NCBI RefSeq assembly: GCF_041146345.1
Contig: NW_027191411.1
Coordinates: 1,860,001-1,924,000 of the forward strand
Reading direction: 5' to 3'
From: Neodothiora populina
Lineage: Eukaryota
Length of the DNA stretch: 64,000 nucleotides
Shown here: positions 43,548 to 50,360 of the stretch, piece by piece
Position numbering within the stretch: the first letter of the stretch is position 1
Layout: each line of letters begins with the position of its first letter
Position numbers and translations under genes: made by a program
Notes under the pieces: model-generated
What the model was told of the DNA's origin: nothing
Seen by the model: only the letters and a program-made list of their open reading frames with translations
The model's database searches: none

Positions 43548-45367
43548 GTAGGCTTGTAAAACACAGACTACCTTATGTAACACACCTGATGTATATATCC
43601 TACCTCTTCATATCCGCGCCCTACATCAAAACCCTACCAGAAAGATCTCTGGAGCACAGGTACATAATCAAGAAAAATAAGCCGTCATTCCACGTACGGC
43701 CACAGGCAGCTGAGAACTGGGCATCCCGTCCGCTCTGCCAGACATAAGCAGTTGACCGGCTGATTAGTACTACGGTGGGTGACCACGTGGGAATCCCAGC
43801 TGCTGTACGTTTTGTTTTTCCTTTTTTACCCCTCTATCTTCCTTTCTTCCTGAATTTTGTATCAGTCTTCTGCTTTTCGGCGTTCTCTTATTGCCTGGTT
43901 TTTCCTTTTTTCCTGTTATGCTTCTGCTGGTTGATGTTATACTTTTGTGTGTTTCGTCAGGTGCAATCCACTGGACAGTACCTTGGGTTCATGGTGAATC
44001 CCTCTTTTCTCCATGTGCGGATATGCGGTATAACCGGAACAATCACATATTATAATGCATACAAAAAGCAGGCAATAGATACTCTATGCCAGAGCACGTG
44101 GATGTACAAAATTGCAACAGCAGAGAAACGCAATGAGATTCTCCGGACTGACACCAGGGGAATGGATATGTGGACCCAGCACTGTCTAGGCTCTGTGACC
44201 AACTCTCCTCGACTCCGGGCGAGGTCGCTATTGCTTTTCACCTGTATGTCGCTCGTGCGTGACTTTCCATTCACCACTTGGTCAGCTTCGCGCATTACGA
44301 CAGAGGTGCAGTACAGTAGATCGCGCGCGGACTTTCCTCTTGCAGTACAACTTTATTGAAGGTCTGTCATATTGTATTCTAACAGCATGCACTACTCTGC
44401 CCTACCACACAAGTACAAACCTTGATCTCGAGGCTTATGGCCGAGGTGCCCACATGGACCTGAAGTCGGCTCCCACGGCAGGGAACTCGGCAAGCCCTGT
44501 TGTTCGGTATCCGCCGATAGACTAGACTGACGTCAAAGAAGAAGATCGGGCCGGCGGGGTGTGTCGACGAACACAGCCAGTTGGCCGTCTATCGATTGGT
44601 GCTCTGCCAGATAGGCTGGACAGATAGGCCTGCCTGCTTGGTCTGTAACCTGTGACTAAAGCAACGCTGTCCCCATGTGTAAAAGCAACTCGTTCTTCTT
44701 TCCTCTCTGCTTCGCAAAAGAACGTCGACGATGTTACACGCTTTGGCGACTCCCGCCCTGAGAGCGCAGCCATGCTGTATGTATCGCGGTCGACGCAACA
44801 TCCGCACCGCGTCTGGTGAGCACGCGCCAGCTATTCTGTACCACTCTGGCCCAAAACTACAAGTACCTGCATTCACCAAAGTTCGAGGCAGGGCTTAATC
44901 CCGCCAAGCCCGTGCCTTGCCGCCACCGAGCGGCGGGTCGCGAAACCGTAACACTTACAAACACGGCATAGAGCAGCAGACTTTTCAATTGCCATCACGA
45001 AATTTCTACTGTTTAGTGGGCCAACAAGAGTCACTGCTGCTATACGAGGGCCACCACCGACGTTGGATCTTACGTACATATAACTCATGCTAGGTAGGTC
45101 TTTGTGCGGGTATACTTTCGACTTGAGACAACTCACCAAGTACTCTCAATCTACTTGTCGCTGCATTTCACATCTTTTCCAATCTTCTCACAGACCCTCT
45201 CTTCTCTGCCCATTTTAGTGTGTCGTACTGTGTGATTTGTGTTCTCGGTTCTTTTTGACCTTTCGCTTTTGGTTGATTCGTTGCCTCTCTCTGTTTTGCC
45301 CTTGGTCACTGCATTTCTTCTTATAAATCCTTTCATCATTTGAAGCGGGGAAGAACAAGAGCCCCAT

Positions 45368-45375
45368 TGAGTCAT
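45368..45375. promoter_or_regulatory. Gcn4/CpcA response element (TGAGTCAT)
   Basis: Exact TGASTCA core about 85-90 bp upstream of the permease ATG. Confidence 0.45.
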
Positions 45376-45458
45376 TTGTGCTCGAGGACTACTTACTTCA
45401 GCAACTGCTGTGGAAGCACAGGAACACCTACCCACAGGACACCTAAACATACATAGCT

Positions 45459-47154
45459 ATGGCGGACAAGATTGAGATCGGCCCAAAGGTCGACCCCGTC
45501 GAAGAGAAGCCTGAGGATTGGAACTCTCGATCGTCATACGATGGTGAACTCGAGAAGCAAGTACAGAAGGGCACCACGGTGCAACTCAAGCGTCGTCTGC
45601 AATCAAGGCATCTGCAGATGATTGCCATTGGTATGTTTCGACTGCTACACGCCAACTACATCCATTGGTTGACAAGATATGAAAGGTGGTACTATTGGTA
45701 CTGGTCTCTTCATCGGTTCCGGCGAAGCCATCGCCAACTCGGGTCCTGCTGGCGCTCTCATCGCATATGCTTTCGTCGGTACTCTCGTGTATAGCGTCAT
45801 GGTCGCTTTAGGAGAGATGGCCACCTACCTGCCCATCACTGGTGCTTTCACCGCCTACGCTGCTCGCTTTGTCGACCCTAGTCTTGGATTCGCCATGGGC
45901 TGGATCTACTGGTTCTCCTGGGCCATCACTTACGCTCTCGAACTCACTGCGTCCGGACTCATCATCCAGTACTGGCGACCGGACCTCAATGTCGGCATCT
46001 TCATCGGGGTCTTTTGGCTTGTCATTACCTCGATCAACTTCTTGCCCGTCTCGTTTTATGGCGAGGTCGAGTTCTATTTTGCGCTCATAAAGGTCATCAC
46101 CGTTGTGGGTTTCATGATCTTCGCCATCTGCATCGACGCCGGAGTCGGACAGCACGGATACCTCGGATTTCATACTTGGGGCAACCCTGGTGCCTTTGCG
46201 CCTTACCTCGTCGGTGACGGCGCTCTTGCCAAGTTCGTAGGATTCTGGTCTGTCCTCATTCAAGCTGGATTTTCTTACCAGGGAACCGAGCTTGTTGGTA
46301 TCGCCGCTGGTGAGACTGCCAACCCTCGCAAGACGGTGCCTGCTGCTATCAAGAAGACCTTCTACCGTATCTTGTTCTTCTTTGTCCTGACCATTTTCTT
46401 CATTGGTCTTTTGGTACCTTATGATAACCCTCAATTGCTTTCTGGAAACACCGACGCCAGCTCTTCACCTTTCGTCATTGCCGCCAAGCTTGCTGGTGTC
46501 TCTACCGTTCCTGGCTTGATCAATGGTGTCCTTCTCTGTGTCGTTCTCAGCGCTGCCAACTCGAACGTTTACTCTGGATCTCGTATCATTGTCGGTCTTG
46601 CTGATTCCAACTGCGCCCCTGCTTTTTTCAAGAAACAAACCAAGGGTGGTGTTCCGTACTACGCTGTCGCCTTCACAGCAGCGATTGGTCTTTTGGGTTT
46701 CCTGAATGAGAGCTCTGGTGCAAGCACCGTCTTCGACTGGCTAATGAACATGTCCGGTGTTGCAGGATTCATCTCCTGGACATGCATCAACATCTCGCAC
46801 GTTGCATTTATGCGCGCCCTCAAGGCTCGCGGCATCCCTCGCGATTTCCTGCCCTACAAGGCCATCCTGCAGCCATACTTTACCTACTACGGCATCTTCT
46901 TCAACGTCATCATCATCCTCACACAGGGCTTCACCGCCTTCATTCCATGGGACACATCGAGCTTTTTTATTGCTTACGTCTCGCTGATCCTCTTTGTGGT
47001 CTTGTACCTCGGCCACAAGATCGTTTTCAGGACCAAGCTCGTCAACCCCAAAGATGCCGACCTGGACTCTGGCCGTCGCGAGATCGACGAGATGCACTTT
47101 GAGGAAAAGGAGCCGACGACGGCCTGGGGCAAGTTCTGGGCCTGGCTCGGATGA
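45459..47154 (+). CDS. APC/YAT amino-acid permease, Can1/Lyp1-like (probably arginine/lysine); intron 45631-45685
   Basis: [36 protein letters not shown] and FSYQGTELVGIAAGE. YWFSWAITYALEL closely resembles the YWFSWAITFALEL segment of yeast Can1/Lyp1. Confidence 0.92.
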
Positions 47155-47266
47155 TCGAGTGGGATGCTCGAGGTTTTTGTTCGCTGCTTTTGGTTTTTTC
47201 GCTTTTGCTTTTGCTTTTGCTTTGCATACTCTGTTCTTTTTTCTTGGAAGAAAGAACAACTAAAAG

Positions 47267-47334
47267 TTTCCGGCGGACCGGAGATCCTGAGAGCTGGATC
47301 AGGGCCTTTTTCCTAAAAAGGTCAAACACTGAGG
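47267..47334 (+). ncRNA. Structured RNA motif, copy 1 (candidate 3'-UTR cis-regulatory RNA)
   Basis: TTTCCGGCGGACCGGA - stem GATCC/GGATC - AG - stem GGCCTTTTT/AAAAAGGTC - AAACACTGAGG. Confidence 0.7.
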
Positions 47335-47354
47335 TGATACTGAAATATTTCGCA

Positions 47355-47457
47355 TTTCCGGAGGACCGGAGGGCCCTTGTTCGTTTTCTACGAACATCGG
47401 TCCAGGGCGTTTCATGCAACGAAGGAAAAGAAAAACATGAAATGTCAAACACTGAGG
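47355..47457 (+). ncRNA. Structured RNA motif, copy 2
   Basis: TTTCCGGAGGACCGGA - stem GGGCC..TGTTCGT/ACGAACA..GGTCC - AG - stem GGCGTTTCATG/CATGAAATGTC - AAACACTGAGG. Confidence 0.7.
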
Positions 47458-47536
47458 TGACAAAGGAAAGAACGAGGAAAAAGAAGAAAAAGAAGAAAAA
47501 GAAGCTTTTTTTATTCTACATACCATGTACTTTGTT

Positions 47537-47727
47537 TTTCCGGAGGACCGGAGGTTGTTCATTGTCGGTCTATGAGAACCGACGAGGATGACCAGGACAA
47601 GTCCTCTTTCCCTCTCTTAAGTGTCTTCCATCTGTCGTTATTCTCGCCCTTTGTACATTGAAGAGAATTATTGACCTTGGAGCGCAAGAGATGAAAAGAG
47701 GAAAAGAGGAGTTGTCAAACACTGAGG
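47537..47727 (+). ncRNA. Structured RNA motif, copy 3
   Basis: TTTCCGGAGGACCGGA - stem GGTTGTTC..GTCGGT/ACCGAC..GGATGACC - AG - long stem GACAAGTCCTCTTTCCCTCT/AGAGGAAAAGAGGAGTTGTC - AAACACTGAGG. Confidence 0.7.
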
Positions 47728-48818
47728 AAAAAAACCATATACTGCTCGTTAATATCTTATGGAGAGTTGTTTTTTATCGTACAAAAAGCATACACTGTAC
47801 ATATAGATTAGATTTTTTGGATCGAAAGTCTACATTACCTTACTGCTCGCTCACTACTCTTGCTGCTGCTTTCCGAAAAAAGTTCTGAACAGTGTTTGAC
47901 TTTTTTCTTGGATCTCATCTGTGTTCACATCACCTGTTCTTGTCATCATCCTTTTTTCCTTCTCTGGATGTCCTCGAAATGCCTTGCTGCAGTCCTTTGA
48001 GCCCTGACTGATTAATCCGGCTATCGATGGGTCTCGGGCATCTTGACGATCTTATGCTGTCCCTATGCCTCCCACAAGGCGGACTGTACCGTCATCGAAG
48101 TCGCTTCTGCCCCACCCCCCGAAGCCTTCGAGCTTGCCTTGCGCGGTGTCTCTGTGCGGGGTCTTGCCTGTCTCTGGTGCCCAAGTACACGTCATCACAT
48201 CCAGCGTCGCCAAAGGCTCAGCACTCCTGCAAAGAATAAGCCAGGCGCGAGCTTGATGCCTGACCCCCCCTTGACTGGAATTCTGCGAGCTTCGGATGGT
48301 GTCTGGTTCTCTCAAGGTAAAAATTCTGCAGGAGGCGGCCAGATAGTCAATGTCGGTTGAAATGGCGGGGTTGGACCAGTGGTACCTTAGCTTGGCCCCC
48401 TGTGACTTATGCGTCGCTGTTGCAGCGTCATTAGTGATCTTTCGTGGGTGGATCATTTGGGTTGGATCAAGCATAGCTCTTTAGTAAGGTAAGTAGTCGA
48501 TGATTAAGCCTCGGCTAGTGCGGGGTTGGTTGTGTGAGGCGAGTAAACAGAACTTGTTCTAATCACTTATCGAGACTCCCTCCATAGTAGGTGAGTCATG
48601 TTACGGTTCAACAATCCTGCGGCAGGCTTATTATATTGATAACAACAGTCAAGCGACCCGTTGAGTGAACACTTTGGTATAAGATGTTCAAGTTCGCAGC
48701 CACTCTTTCTTAATAGCTACAATAGAGGATATGTATTTGTATTCACTTAGCTTAGTTGCGTGGAAACCTACCTTACTTCGCCGTCTTGTATCCAACACCC
48801 AACATTGAGCATAATAGC

Positions 48819-49810
48819 ATGTCCACCCAACTCGACGCCGCCTCGATCGCGCGCACCTCTCTACATGACCCCACCCACTTCGACATCCAGCACTCGCAGA
48901 CCCTTCACCGCCTCGAGCTCCTGCGGCACTGGGATATTTCTACCGGCGCCAAGGTGCTAGAACTGGGATGCGGGCAGGGAGACTGCACGACTGTGCTTGC
49001 CTCTGCTGTTGGCGAGCAGGGGAGGGTGGTAGCGGTCGATCCAGCGGGACTGGATTATGGTGAGTCTTTTTTTTCGCCTTCTCTGTACTCTGCTGCGTGT
49101 CACACCTGGCGGGTGGTGAGAGCGGAGAAGCAGCCGACTGATAAATGGCTTATCCTGCAGGTGCCCCGTATACTCTCGGCCAAGCACAGAATCACATTTC
49201 TCAAGGTCCGCTAGGTAGAAGGATCACGTGGGTGCAATCATCGCCCTTGGACTACCTTTCCTCTCTCTCTTCCACATCTCCCGTCAGCGACAGCAAAACC
49301 TGCGACGCAACAGTGCTCGCCCACTGCCTGTGGTACTTCTCCTCCCCCTCACTGATCCTCTCCACCTTCCGAGCCATCAAGCAGCATAGCAGGCGTCTCC
49401 TACTTGCTGAGTGGTCATTAGTAGCGACGCACCCGTCCGCCCAGCCTCACGTGTTAGCGACGCTCACTCAGGCAGCGCTCGAGTGCCGCAAGCCCGCGGG
49501 CAGCAGCGTCTCGAATGTCCGCACGGTGCTGAGTCCAAAGCGGCTTACCGAGCTGGCTCTGGCTGCCGGGTGGCAGCTAGAGAGCGAGACACGTGTGCAA
49601 GGTGGCGAGGGGCTGTTGGACGGACAGTGGGAGGTCTCTGCTTGTCTTTCTTCTTCTTTCGAAGGGGAAGTGCAGGAGCAAGTGAGTGATGAGCGGGAAC
49701 GGGCGATGGTTCTCGCGCTGAGGGATGCATGTGAGGCAAGCTTGGAGGTTGTACAGGAGGGTCGCAAAGGGGTCAGGGCGATGGATGTCTGGGTTGCTGG
49801 TTTTGTCTGA
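48819..49810 (+). CDS. Class I SAM-dependent methyltransferase; intron 49060-49160
   Basis: Motif I VLELGCGQGDCT, VVAVDP, spliced LDYGAPYTLGQAQ, and VLAHCLWYF. Confidence 0.88.
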
Positions 49811-50309
49811 TCGGGCAGTGCTGAGTGGGTGTGCAAACAGATCCACGACATGAGTCAAGGTAAAGATGAGAGAAGAGATGACAGTAGACTTCGTCCAAAG
49901 CGGAAGCAAGTACTCTTGTCTACCTTGGTGTTAGCAAAATGCTACTTATCTTGTAAGGATACAATAGATTAGAATGGCGTAGCGTCACCAAGTCCTCACT
50001 GTCACAGACGACGGATCCACGAGGATCTGTGGCCATCATGAACAGAGGACTCGGGTAGTATCTCACGAGTGCATGTAAACAACTGGTGGGAGTATCCTTA
50101 TAGCTTGCTTCTGTATCTACCTTTTCTACCTTTTCTACCGAGGAGTTCTTCTCGATCCATGCGGCAAATTCTTGACTCAAGAAGGGCGGGGATTGGTGGC
50201 GAGACATGAGTCGAAGGATCACCAGAGACTCTCTTGGCAGGGTCTCGAGCCTCGCTGCGTCTTTCTTTCTCTGTGTGCTTCGGACTTGACGATCCATCAA
50301 TTCTATCGG

Positions 50310-50360
50310 TTCAACCATCAATTCAACCATCAATTCAACCATCAATTCAACCATCAATTC
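50310..50360 (+). repeat. 12-bp tandem repeat (TTCAACCATCAA) x4.25
   Basis: Perfect copies at 50310, 50322, 50334 and 50346, ending 12 bp before the ATG at 50373. Confidence 0.95.

Follow-up and report, generated by a model that had tools for sequence, protein, structure and literature searches.

The analyzed stretch of fungal DNA, 64 kb in length and referred to as the window, contains a gene for a CAN1/LYP1-like basic amino-acid permease on the plus strand at 45459–47154 (Pfam AA_permease, E 2.5e-139). The gene consists of exon 1 (45459–45630), an intron of the form GTATGT...AAG (45631–45685) and exon 2 (45686–47154), which closes with the TGA stop codon at 47152–47154, and these exon borders agree with the consensus ...MIAIGGTIGTG in an alignment of homologues. 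The top homologue of the encoded protein is 100% identical to it, with Neodothiora populina as the named source, and many further proteins from Dothideomycetes and other Pezizomycotina are 72–90% identical, a good share of them being designated arginine permease, CAN1 or lysine permease by their sources.

The permease gene is followed on the plus strand by one for a SAM-dependent methyltransferase, whose ATG lies at 48819. Pfam, tRNA and Rfam searches of the spacer between the two genes yielded no gene-like reading, no tRNA and no credible Rfam RNA. Open frames are present in this spacer at 48016–48360 (plus strand) and 48052–48480 (minus strand), neither with a match to a Pfam family, and the same applies to the open frames of a GC-rich island (0.53–0.63) that interrupts the otherwise AT-rich spacer midway, at 48050–48350. 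At 50310–50360, directly 5′ of a putative gene start, the 12-nt sequence TTCAACCATCAA is repeated perfectly in tandem (4.2 copies); the gene 3′ of this repeat contains a 2OG-Fe(II) oxygenase domain (PF13640, E 4.8e-08).

Three repeated units behind the permease gene

Directly after the permease stop codon and on the strand of this gene, three units were found, all of which begin with TTTCCGG[C/A]GGACCGGAG (at 47267, 47355, and 47537) and finish with GTCAAACACTGAGG (at 47321, 47444, and 47714). Folding of the single units gave a common layout in which P1, a CCGG-NGGA-CCGG hairpin, is followed by another hairpin, P2, then by the junction CAG and finally by hairpin P3, with the GUC of the 3′ block supplying the last three pairs of P3 and AAACACUGAGG remaining as a tail. 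Unit 1 (47267–47334) comprises the 5′ block TTTCCGGCGGACCGGAG, P1 (CCGG-CGGA-CCGG), P2 (GAUCC/GGAUC), CAG, P3 (GGCCUUUUU/AAAAAGGUC) and the tail. Unit 2 (47355–47457) carries the same blocks together with P2 and P3 helices of different sequence (P3: GGCGUUUCAUG/CAUGAAAUGUC), and unit 3 (47537–47727) combines these blocks with a long P2 and a P3 arm of ~120 nt with the closing helix GACAA/UUGUC. A MAFFT alignment of the three units misplaced P2 and CAG of unit 3.

The units measure 68, 103, and 191 nt, and their P2 and P3 helices are wholly different in sequence and length while occupying the same positions. Folding z-scores were -1.53, -3.26, and -3.92 for units 1, 2, and 3, respectively, and none of 200 shuffles folded as well as unit 3. 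Three features make the units look like real RNA structure: the invariance of the blocks, the P2 and P3 helices that have diverged in sequence but not in position, and the z-scores of units 2 and 3. We read the units as a genuine element of the 3′ flank of the permease gene at the level of RNA, and we infer that they lie within the mature 3′ UTR. As the three units are wholly diverged outside the blocks, the array is old. Within the 64-kb window no extra copy of either block was found at up to three mismatches, except for an inverted 3′ block at 47890–47900.

The 5′ block of units 2 and 3 is itself an internal direct repeat, CCGGAGG-A-CCGGAGG (47355–47371 and 47537–47553), and the one of unit 1 (47267–47283) reads CCGGCGG-A-CCGGAGA. 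Its CGG/CCG half-sites presumably resemble those of zinc-cluster transcription factors. Just 5′ of unit 1 lies H0, a 12-bp hairpin at 47232–47258 with the sequence UGUUCUUUUUUC-UUG-GAAGAAAGAACA. Its predicted energy of -11.8 kcal/mol (z -3.58) was equalled in 2 of 200 shuffles. The 5′ arm and loop of H0 contain CTTTTTTCTTGGA, which recurs exactly at 47900–47912, adjoining the inverted 3′ block. Both copies include UCUUG, which in yeast is a Nab3-type termination motif.

Short tandem repeats accompany the array: (TTTTGC)x4.5 at 47197–47223, just past the stop codon, (GAAAAAGAA)x3.1 at 47468–47504, between units 2 and 3, and (AGAGGAAA)x2.8 at 47689–47710, inside the 3′ arm of the unit-3 P3. Additionally, the spacers behind unit 2 (47507–47530) and behind unit 3 (47770–47800) both contain a T-run followed by TACA, CATAC, and TGTAC in the same order (86%), with an alignment score that is not above that of shuffles. 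It is conceivable that transcripts end alternatively behind unit 2 or behind unit 3.

A search of 44000–50000 on both strands against Rfam 15, with E up to 10, yielded no match at gathering score. The nine matches returned were all far below gathering and belonged to unrelated families, the best being SpF44 with 28.7 bits against a gathering score of 70; the families without a match in this region include TPP, lysine, guanidine I–III, IRE and hammerhead. A reading of GUC...CUGAGGA as hammerhead-like was dropped because no Rfam ribozyme model matched.

A metagenome scan with GTCAAACACTGAGG returned at least 117 stretches, with single matches among the matches listed. None of the listed matches had a 5′ block upstream on the same strand in the arrangement of a unit, and none of the stretches listed encoded the permease. 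One stretch (L106) had a 5′-block-like match on the opposite strand only, and 8 of the 117 listed matches had a loose CCGG-type match upstream, none of them unit-like. We read the metagenome matches to the 3′ block as chance. Among prokaryote genome contigs, the C-terminal half of the permease as query yielded no relatives and an alignment of 20 permease sequences recovered two bacterial loci with 40% identity, and the permease-guided search of viral contigs yielded no relatives; the scans of prokaryote genomes and viral contigs thus contributed no fungal orthologue locus. In the literature searched, which was covered at the level of abstracts, the unit motif and the sequence strings are not described in this context, and the passages searched of PMC5640933 (Li and Breaker, 2017) and PMC8216456 (Gao et al., 2021) contain no mention of a permease, a transporter or a tandem arrangement.

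The complementary strand and its predicted folds

The first-pass annotation of this DNA had drawn attention to a short strand downstream of the units, the anti-motif CAGTGTTTGAC at 47890–47900, and had described it as the exact reverse complement of the core of the 3′ block, GTCAAACACTG, in all three units. This was confirmed, as a search of the 64-kb window for GTCAAACACTG with up to one mismatch gave just four matches, all of them exact: three on the plus strand (47321, 47444, and 47714) and one on the minus strand (47890–47900). The anti-motif is 165–558 nt away from its targets and ~930 nt 5′ of the next ATG. A repeat finder likewise recovered the proposed 17 contiguous pairs with unit 1, its arms being 47315–47331 and 47890–47906 (94% complementary) with G47320 against T47901, a G.U in RNA, as the sole non-Watson-Crick position. 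The extension to 17 bp is due to the T6 run at 47901–47906. For unit 2 the arms comprise 15 nt with one mismatch (93%), and for unit 3 they comprise 11 nt without any mismatch. The target in unit 1, 47315–47331, consists of the 3′ strand of P3 and the first 8 nt of the tail. Since 47315–47323 form the 3′ strand of this P3 (GGCCUUUUU/AAAAAGGUC), the long helix would replace P3, as had been claimed, and both structures are mutually exclusive.

How unusual this complementarity is was assessed with dinucleotide-preserving shuffles of the spacer 47731–48800 (1070 nt). Of 5000 shuffled spacers, 24 contained an exact complement, 11 nt or longer, to the conserved 5′ or 3′ blocks (about 0.005; a test framed after the fact); with any part of the units (47265–47730) allowed as the target, 104 of 1000 did so. 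What makes the match nominally unusual is solely its position on a conserved block, a criterion that was set post hoc. The longest complement of the spacer to the whole unit region coincides exactly with the invariant block.

The predicted duplexes of 47884–47912 with the ends of units 1, 2, and 3 have energies of -24.9, -20.3, and -23.7 kcal/mol, and the P3 hairpin of unit 1 alone has -7.1 kcal/mol. In a model of 47155–47960 the minimum free energy was -237.4 kcal/mol, and forcing the 17-bp helix with unit 1 cost +1.1 kcal/mol, compared with +5.3 and +5.4 kcal/mol for the 11-bp helices with units 2 and 3. In the ensemble of this model, the anti-motif paired mainly with 47727–47748 (~0.61–0.68), then with unit 1 (~0.19) and with the local A-run (~0.10). 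The first of these partners lies just after unit 3, and the repeat finder gave arms of 21 nt with 76% complementarity for it.

For transcripts that stop short of the strand, at 47760 or 47880, the predicted probability of the unit-1 P3 was 0.92 or 0.91, respectively; with the 3′ end set to 47915, 47960, or 48100, it became 0.48, 0.75, or 0.41. When 47881–47915 was shuffled (n = 24), it ranged from 0.73 to 0.94, with none of the 24 as low as the native 0.48. The P3 helices of units 2 and 3 remained at 0.98–1.0 in all transcripts ending between 47760 and 47960; in the transcript ending at 48100, the one of unit 2 falls to 0.0 and the one of unit 3 stays at 0.96. The folds hence show that, in the model, the anti-motif specifically opens the weak P3 of unit 1, with units 2 and 3 remaining folded.

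The interpretation offered by the first-pass annotation thus finds partial support in silico. Its mutually exclusive folds were recovered in that the alternatives are near-isoenergetic (+1.1 kcal/mol) and P3 falls from 0.91 to 0.48 once the strand is included, but up to 47960 this is confined to unit 1. The ensemble favors 47727–47748 over unit 1 as the partner of the strand (~0.65 versus ~0.19). Taken together, a switch exists in the thermodynamic model, it is specific for this strand and it is limited to unit 1. Long-range fold predictions of this kind are weak evidence about the cell.

The anti-motif is also enclosed by an imperfect palindrome of 41 nt at 47872–47912, in which UCCGAAAAAAGUU pairs with GACUUUUUUC..GGA. 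The corresponding hairpin has a predicted energy of -10.9 kcal/mol, with CAGUGUUU in the loop region and the T6 run in its 3′ arm, and it does not stand out from shuffled sequences (z -1.59; 10 of 200 folded equally well). The arms of the palindrome resemble P3 of unit 1. Were this hairpin to form, docking of its loop on the unpaired AAACACUG tail of one or another unit, with P3 kept closed, would be a second possible mode of action.

As for a riboswitch-like aptamer, which had also been suggested, two mutually exclusive pairings that compete for one strand of this core were found in silico only, the core being the conserved one of the units, and no Rfam family matched. In the model the strand works like the expression platform of a riboswitch, yet it is no member of a known family.

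Putative signals of 3′-end formation and possible roles of the strand

The region 47155–48100 contains no GTRNGT splice donor, the sole loose GT[AG]NG being located at 47159, and control of a splice site by the anti-motif was rejected because GTRNGT is absent. Neither AATAAA nor ATTAAA is present in the same region. An AT-rich stretch in front of the strand, put forward earlier as a possible place for a poly(A) signal that would lead to 3′ ends with or without the anti-motif, is real: the GC content reaches its minimum of 0.31 at 47750–47849 and rises above 0.5 only past 47950. Inside this minimum lies TACATA (47798–47803; also found at 47517), a possible UA-rich 3′-end efficiency element if the yeast consensus is assumed to apply. 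It is followed by A6 (47876–47881), CA (47890) and U6 (47901–47906), which we take to be the order of a yeast-type poly(A) site, consisting of efficiency element, positioning element, cleavage site and U-rich element. By this analogy, it is possible that the T6 run serves as the U-rich element 3′ of the cleavage site. The anti-motif would then overlap the cleavage region, so that it may be missing from mature mRNAs while being present in the nascent RNA, a picture that departs in detail from the one first drawn but keeps its spirit.

The reading we tentatively prefer, although we would give it somewhat less than an even chance, is that 47890–47900 competes in cis for GUC-AAACACUG, the conserved 3′ tail with which the units behind the permease gene end, and is tied to 3′-end formation or stability. 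The strand would toggle between the local hairpin (47872–47912), which would tie up A6 (47876–47881) and U6 (47901–47906) and hold CAGUGUUU in its loop, and a long-range helix with a unit tail, comprising 17 bp with unit 1 or 8–11 bp with any unit. Since the flanks resemble a yeast-type poly(A) site, the likeliest output would be the efficiency or position of 3′-end cleavage of the permease mRNA, or the stability of the latter, and this output might be coupled to the occupancy of the unit cores by a putative ligand or protein. Viewed as an inverted unit fragment, the putative copy retains 11 of 11 positions of the 3′ block and has no 5′ block within three mismatches; selection on the complement would give just this pattern of an intact 3′ block next to no recognizable 5′ block. 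We read the anti-motif as a plausible switch strand, a role we consider tenable but fall short of expecting.

Several observations speak against a competitor strand. In the ensemble of 47155–47960 its pairing with unit 1 is far below that with 47727–47748, only one of the three units is affected, and the helix with unit 1 has to close a loop of 558 nt after P3 has already folded. Furthermore, the local hairpin does not exceed shuffles, the extensions through A/T runs are low-complexity sequence, the test was framed after the observation, and an inverted duplication could account for the non-randomness even if the strand had no function.

Among the alternatives, a functionless chance match is the one that survives best, and we regard it as rather unlikely: an AT-rich and run-rich spacer would happen to contain the complement of one conserved 11-mer, with the extension being noise. 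This is in line with the 104 of 1000 shuffles that contain such a complement to any part of the units, with an observation that was picked after reading, with a predicted main partner that lies elsewhere (47727–47748), with a local hairpin that is not significant and with the many near-isoenergetic folds that long AU-rich RNAs hold. It is at odds with the low count obtained for the conserved blocks alone (24 of 5000) and with two further features of the 43-nt segment around the strand: 13 nt of it recur exactly and in direct orientation in the unit-1 region (a shared word of this length arose in 4 of 1000 shuffles), and flipping of 47884–47898 creates a match of 21/23 to P3 plus block of unit 1.

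These last features lead to the second alternative, which we hold to be unlikely, that the strand is an unused relic of an inverted partial duplication of a unit 3′ end, most like that of unit 1. A fragment with P3 loop, 3′ strand and block would have been copied in inverted orientation or flipped between the inverted repeats GAAAAAAGT/ACTTTTTTC. Segment 47870–47912 relates to the unit-1 region through the inverted 11-mer, through the 13-nt direct repeat, in which CTTTTTTCTTGGA at 47900–47912 exactly repeats 47236–47248, and through the flipped stretch TTTCCGAAAAAAGTCAAACACTG, which is identical to TTTCCTAAAAAGGTCAAACACTG of unit 1 at 21 of 23 positions; given the palindromic nature of the segment, a reading of the minus strand shows this similarity with no flip needed. 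Similarity statistics of this segment are inflated by its A/T runs. The location inside a 41-nt palindrome and the growth of unit arrays by duplication also fit a relic, and together these sequence relationships suggest that the anti-motif began as an inverted partial copy of a unit 3′ end. A neutral copy, however, should decay like the missing 5′ block, yet its 3′ block is intact at 11/11; moreover, the run-based similarities are overstated, dinucleotide shuffles not preserving homopolymer runs, and an origin as inverted copy is compatible with a present function as competitor strand.

A more far-reaching version of the competitor strand would make the units sensors of a second, non-TPP riboswitch-like class in eukaryotes, with the anti-motif as expression platform, which we consider doubtful at best. 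An empty unit core would free the tail for pairing with 47890–47906, a stretch that would overlap the region of poly(A) cleavage. Nutrient status would thereby set 3′-end formation of the transporter mRNA, and the strand would have arisen by inversion of the 3′ end of a fourth unit.

We deem it very unlikely that the 11-mer, perhaps as CCGG-N4-CCGG, is a DNA-level element, i.e., an orientation-independent transcription-factor site for the permease or the methyltransferase gene (48819). Its presence in both orientations, its position ~930 nt 5′ of the next ATG and the CCGG-N4-CCGG itself, which in our estimation recalls the CGG-half-site motifs of zinc-cluster factors, would fit such a site. 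It is opposed by the three full units, all in the orientation of the gene and directly past its stop codon, by hairpins of different sequence at the same positions, which a DNA site would not need, and by the lack of other copies in 64 kb. Hardly credible is a sense element of an unannotated convergent minus-strand RNA carrying GUCAAACACUG, for although the stretch reads AAGAAAAAAGTCAAACACTG and resembles the end of unit 1, that strand has no 5′ block within three mismatches, the frames at 48016–48360 (+) and 48052–48480 (-) have no Pfam family, there is no tRNA, the only local Rfam match is snR67 (19.3 bits against a gathering score of 55), and the fold of the minus strand does not exceed shuffles (z -0.84).

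Comparison with known systems

To our knowledge, TPP is the only riboswitch class established in eukaryotes. If the competitor reading is true, the array behind an arginine/lysine permease gene, together with a complementary strand at the likely poly(A) site, would represent a possible new eukaryotic RNA switch, and this candidate can be tested by mutation. Even if the strand is a relic or a chance match, the unit array would stand as an undescribed 3′ UTR element.

In bacterial expression platforms of the anti-terminator or anti-sequestor type, two exclusive helices likewise share a strand of the conserved core, as they do in the model presented here with its small energy gap. The strand described here differs in that it lies 165–558 nt away, after three complete units and in a eukaryote, with neither a terminator nor a ribosome-binding site as the target of control. 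Tandem riboswitches such as those for glycine and guanidine-II resemble the array in the repetition of one conserved module in a single transcript, whereas the units of 68, 103, and 191 nt match neither their sequences nor their models and have a eukaryotic 3′ location.

The 3′ UTR of the transferrin receptor contains several hairpin units, the IREs, which control mRNA stability via a binding protein. The permease array similarly places several hairpin-based units behind a nutrient-uptake gene, presumably in the 3′ UTR as well. IRE arrays, however, have no dedicated complementary strand, and the units found here are three-hairpin modules with two invariant blocks and do not match the IRE model of Rfam.

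Eukaryotic TPP riboswitches are located in introns of the fungal NMT1 type and in the 3′ UTR of plant THIC, where the riboswitch alters 3′-end processing, and their conserved strand can pair with a short complement tens to hundreds of nucleotides away. In contrast to these, the permease array shows no match to the TPP model and no GTRNGT in 47155–48100, consists of three tandem units instead of one aptamer and is associated with a gene for a basic amino-acid permease. What both would have in common is a structured sensor in an mRNA whose conserved strand meets a short, distant complement.
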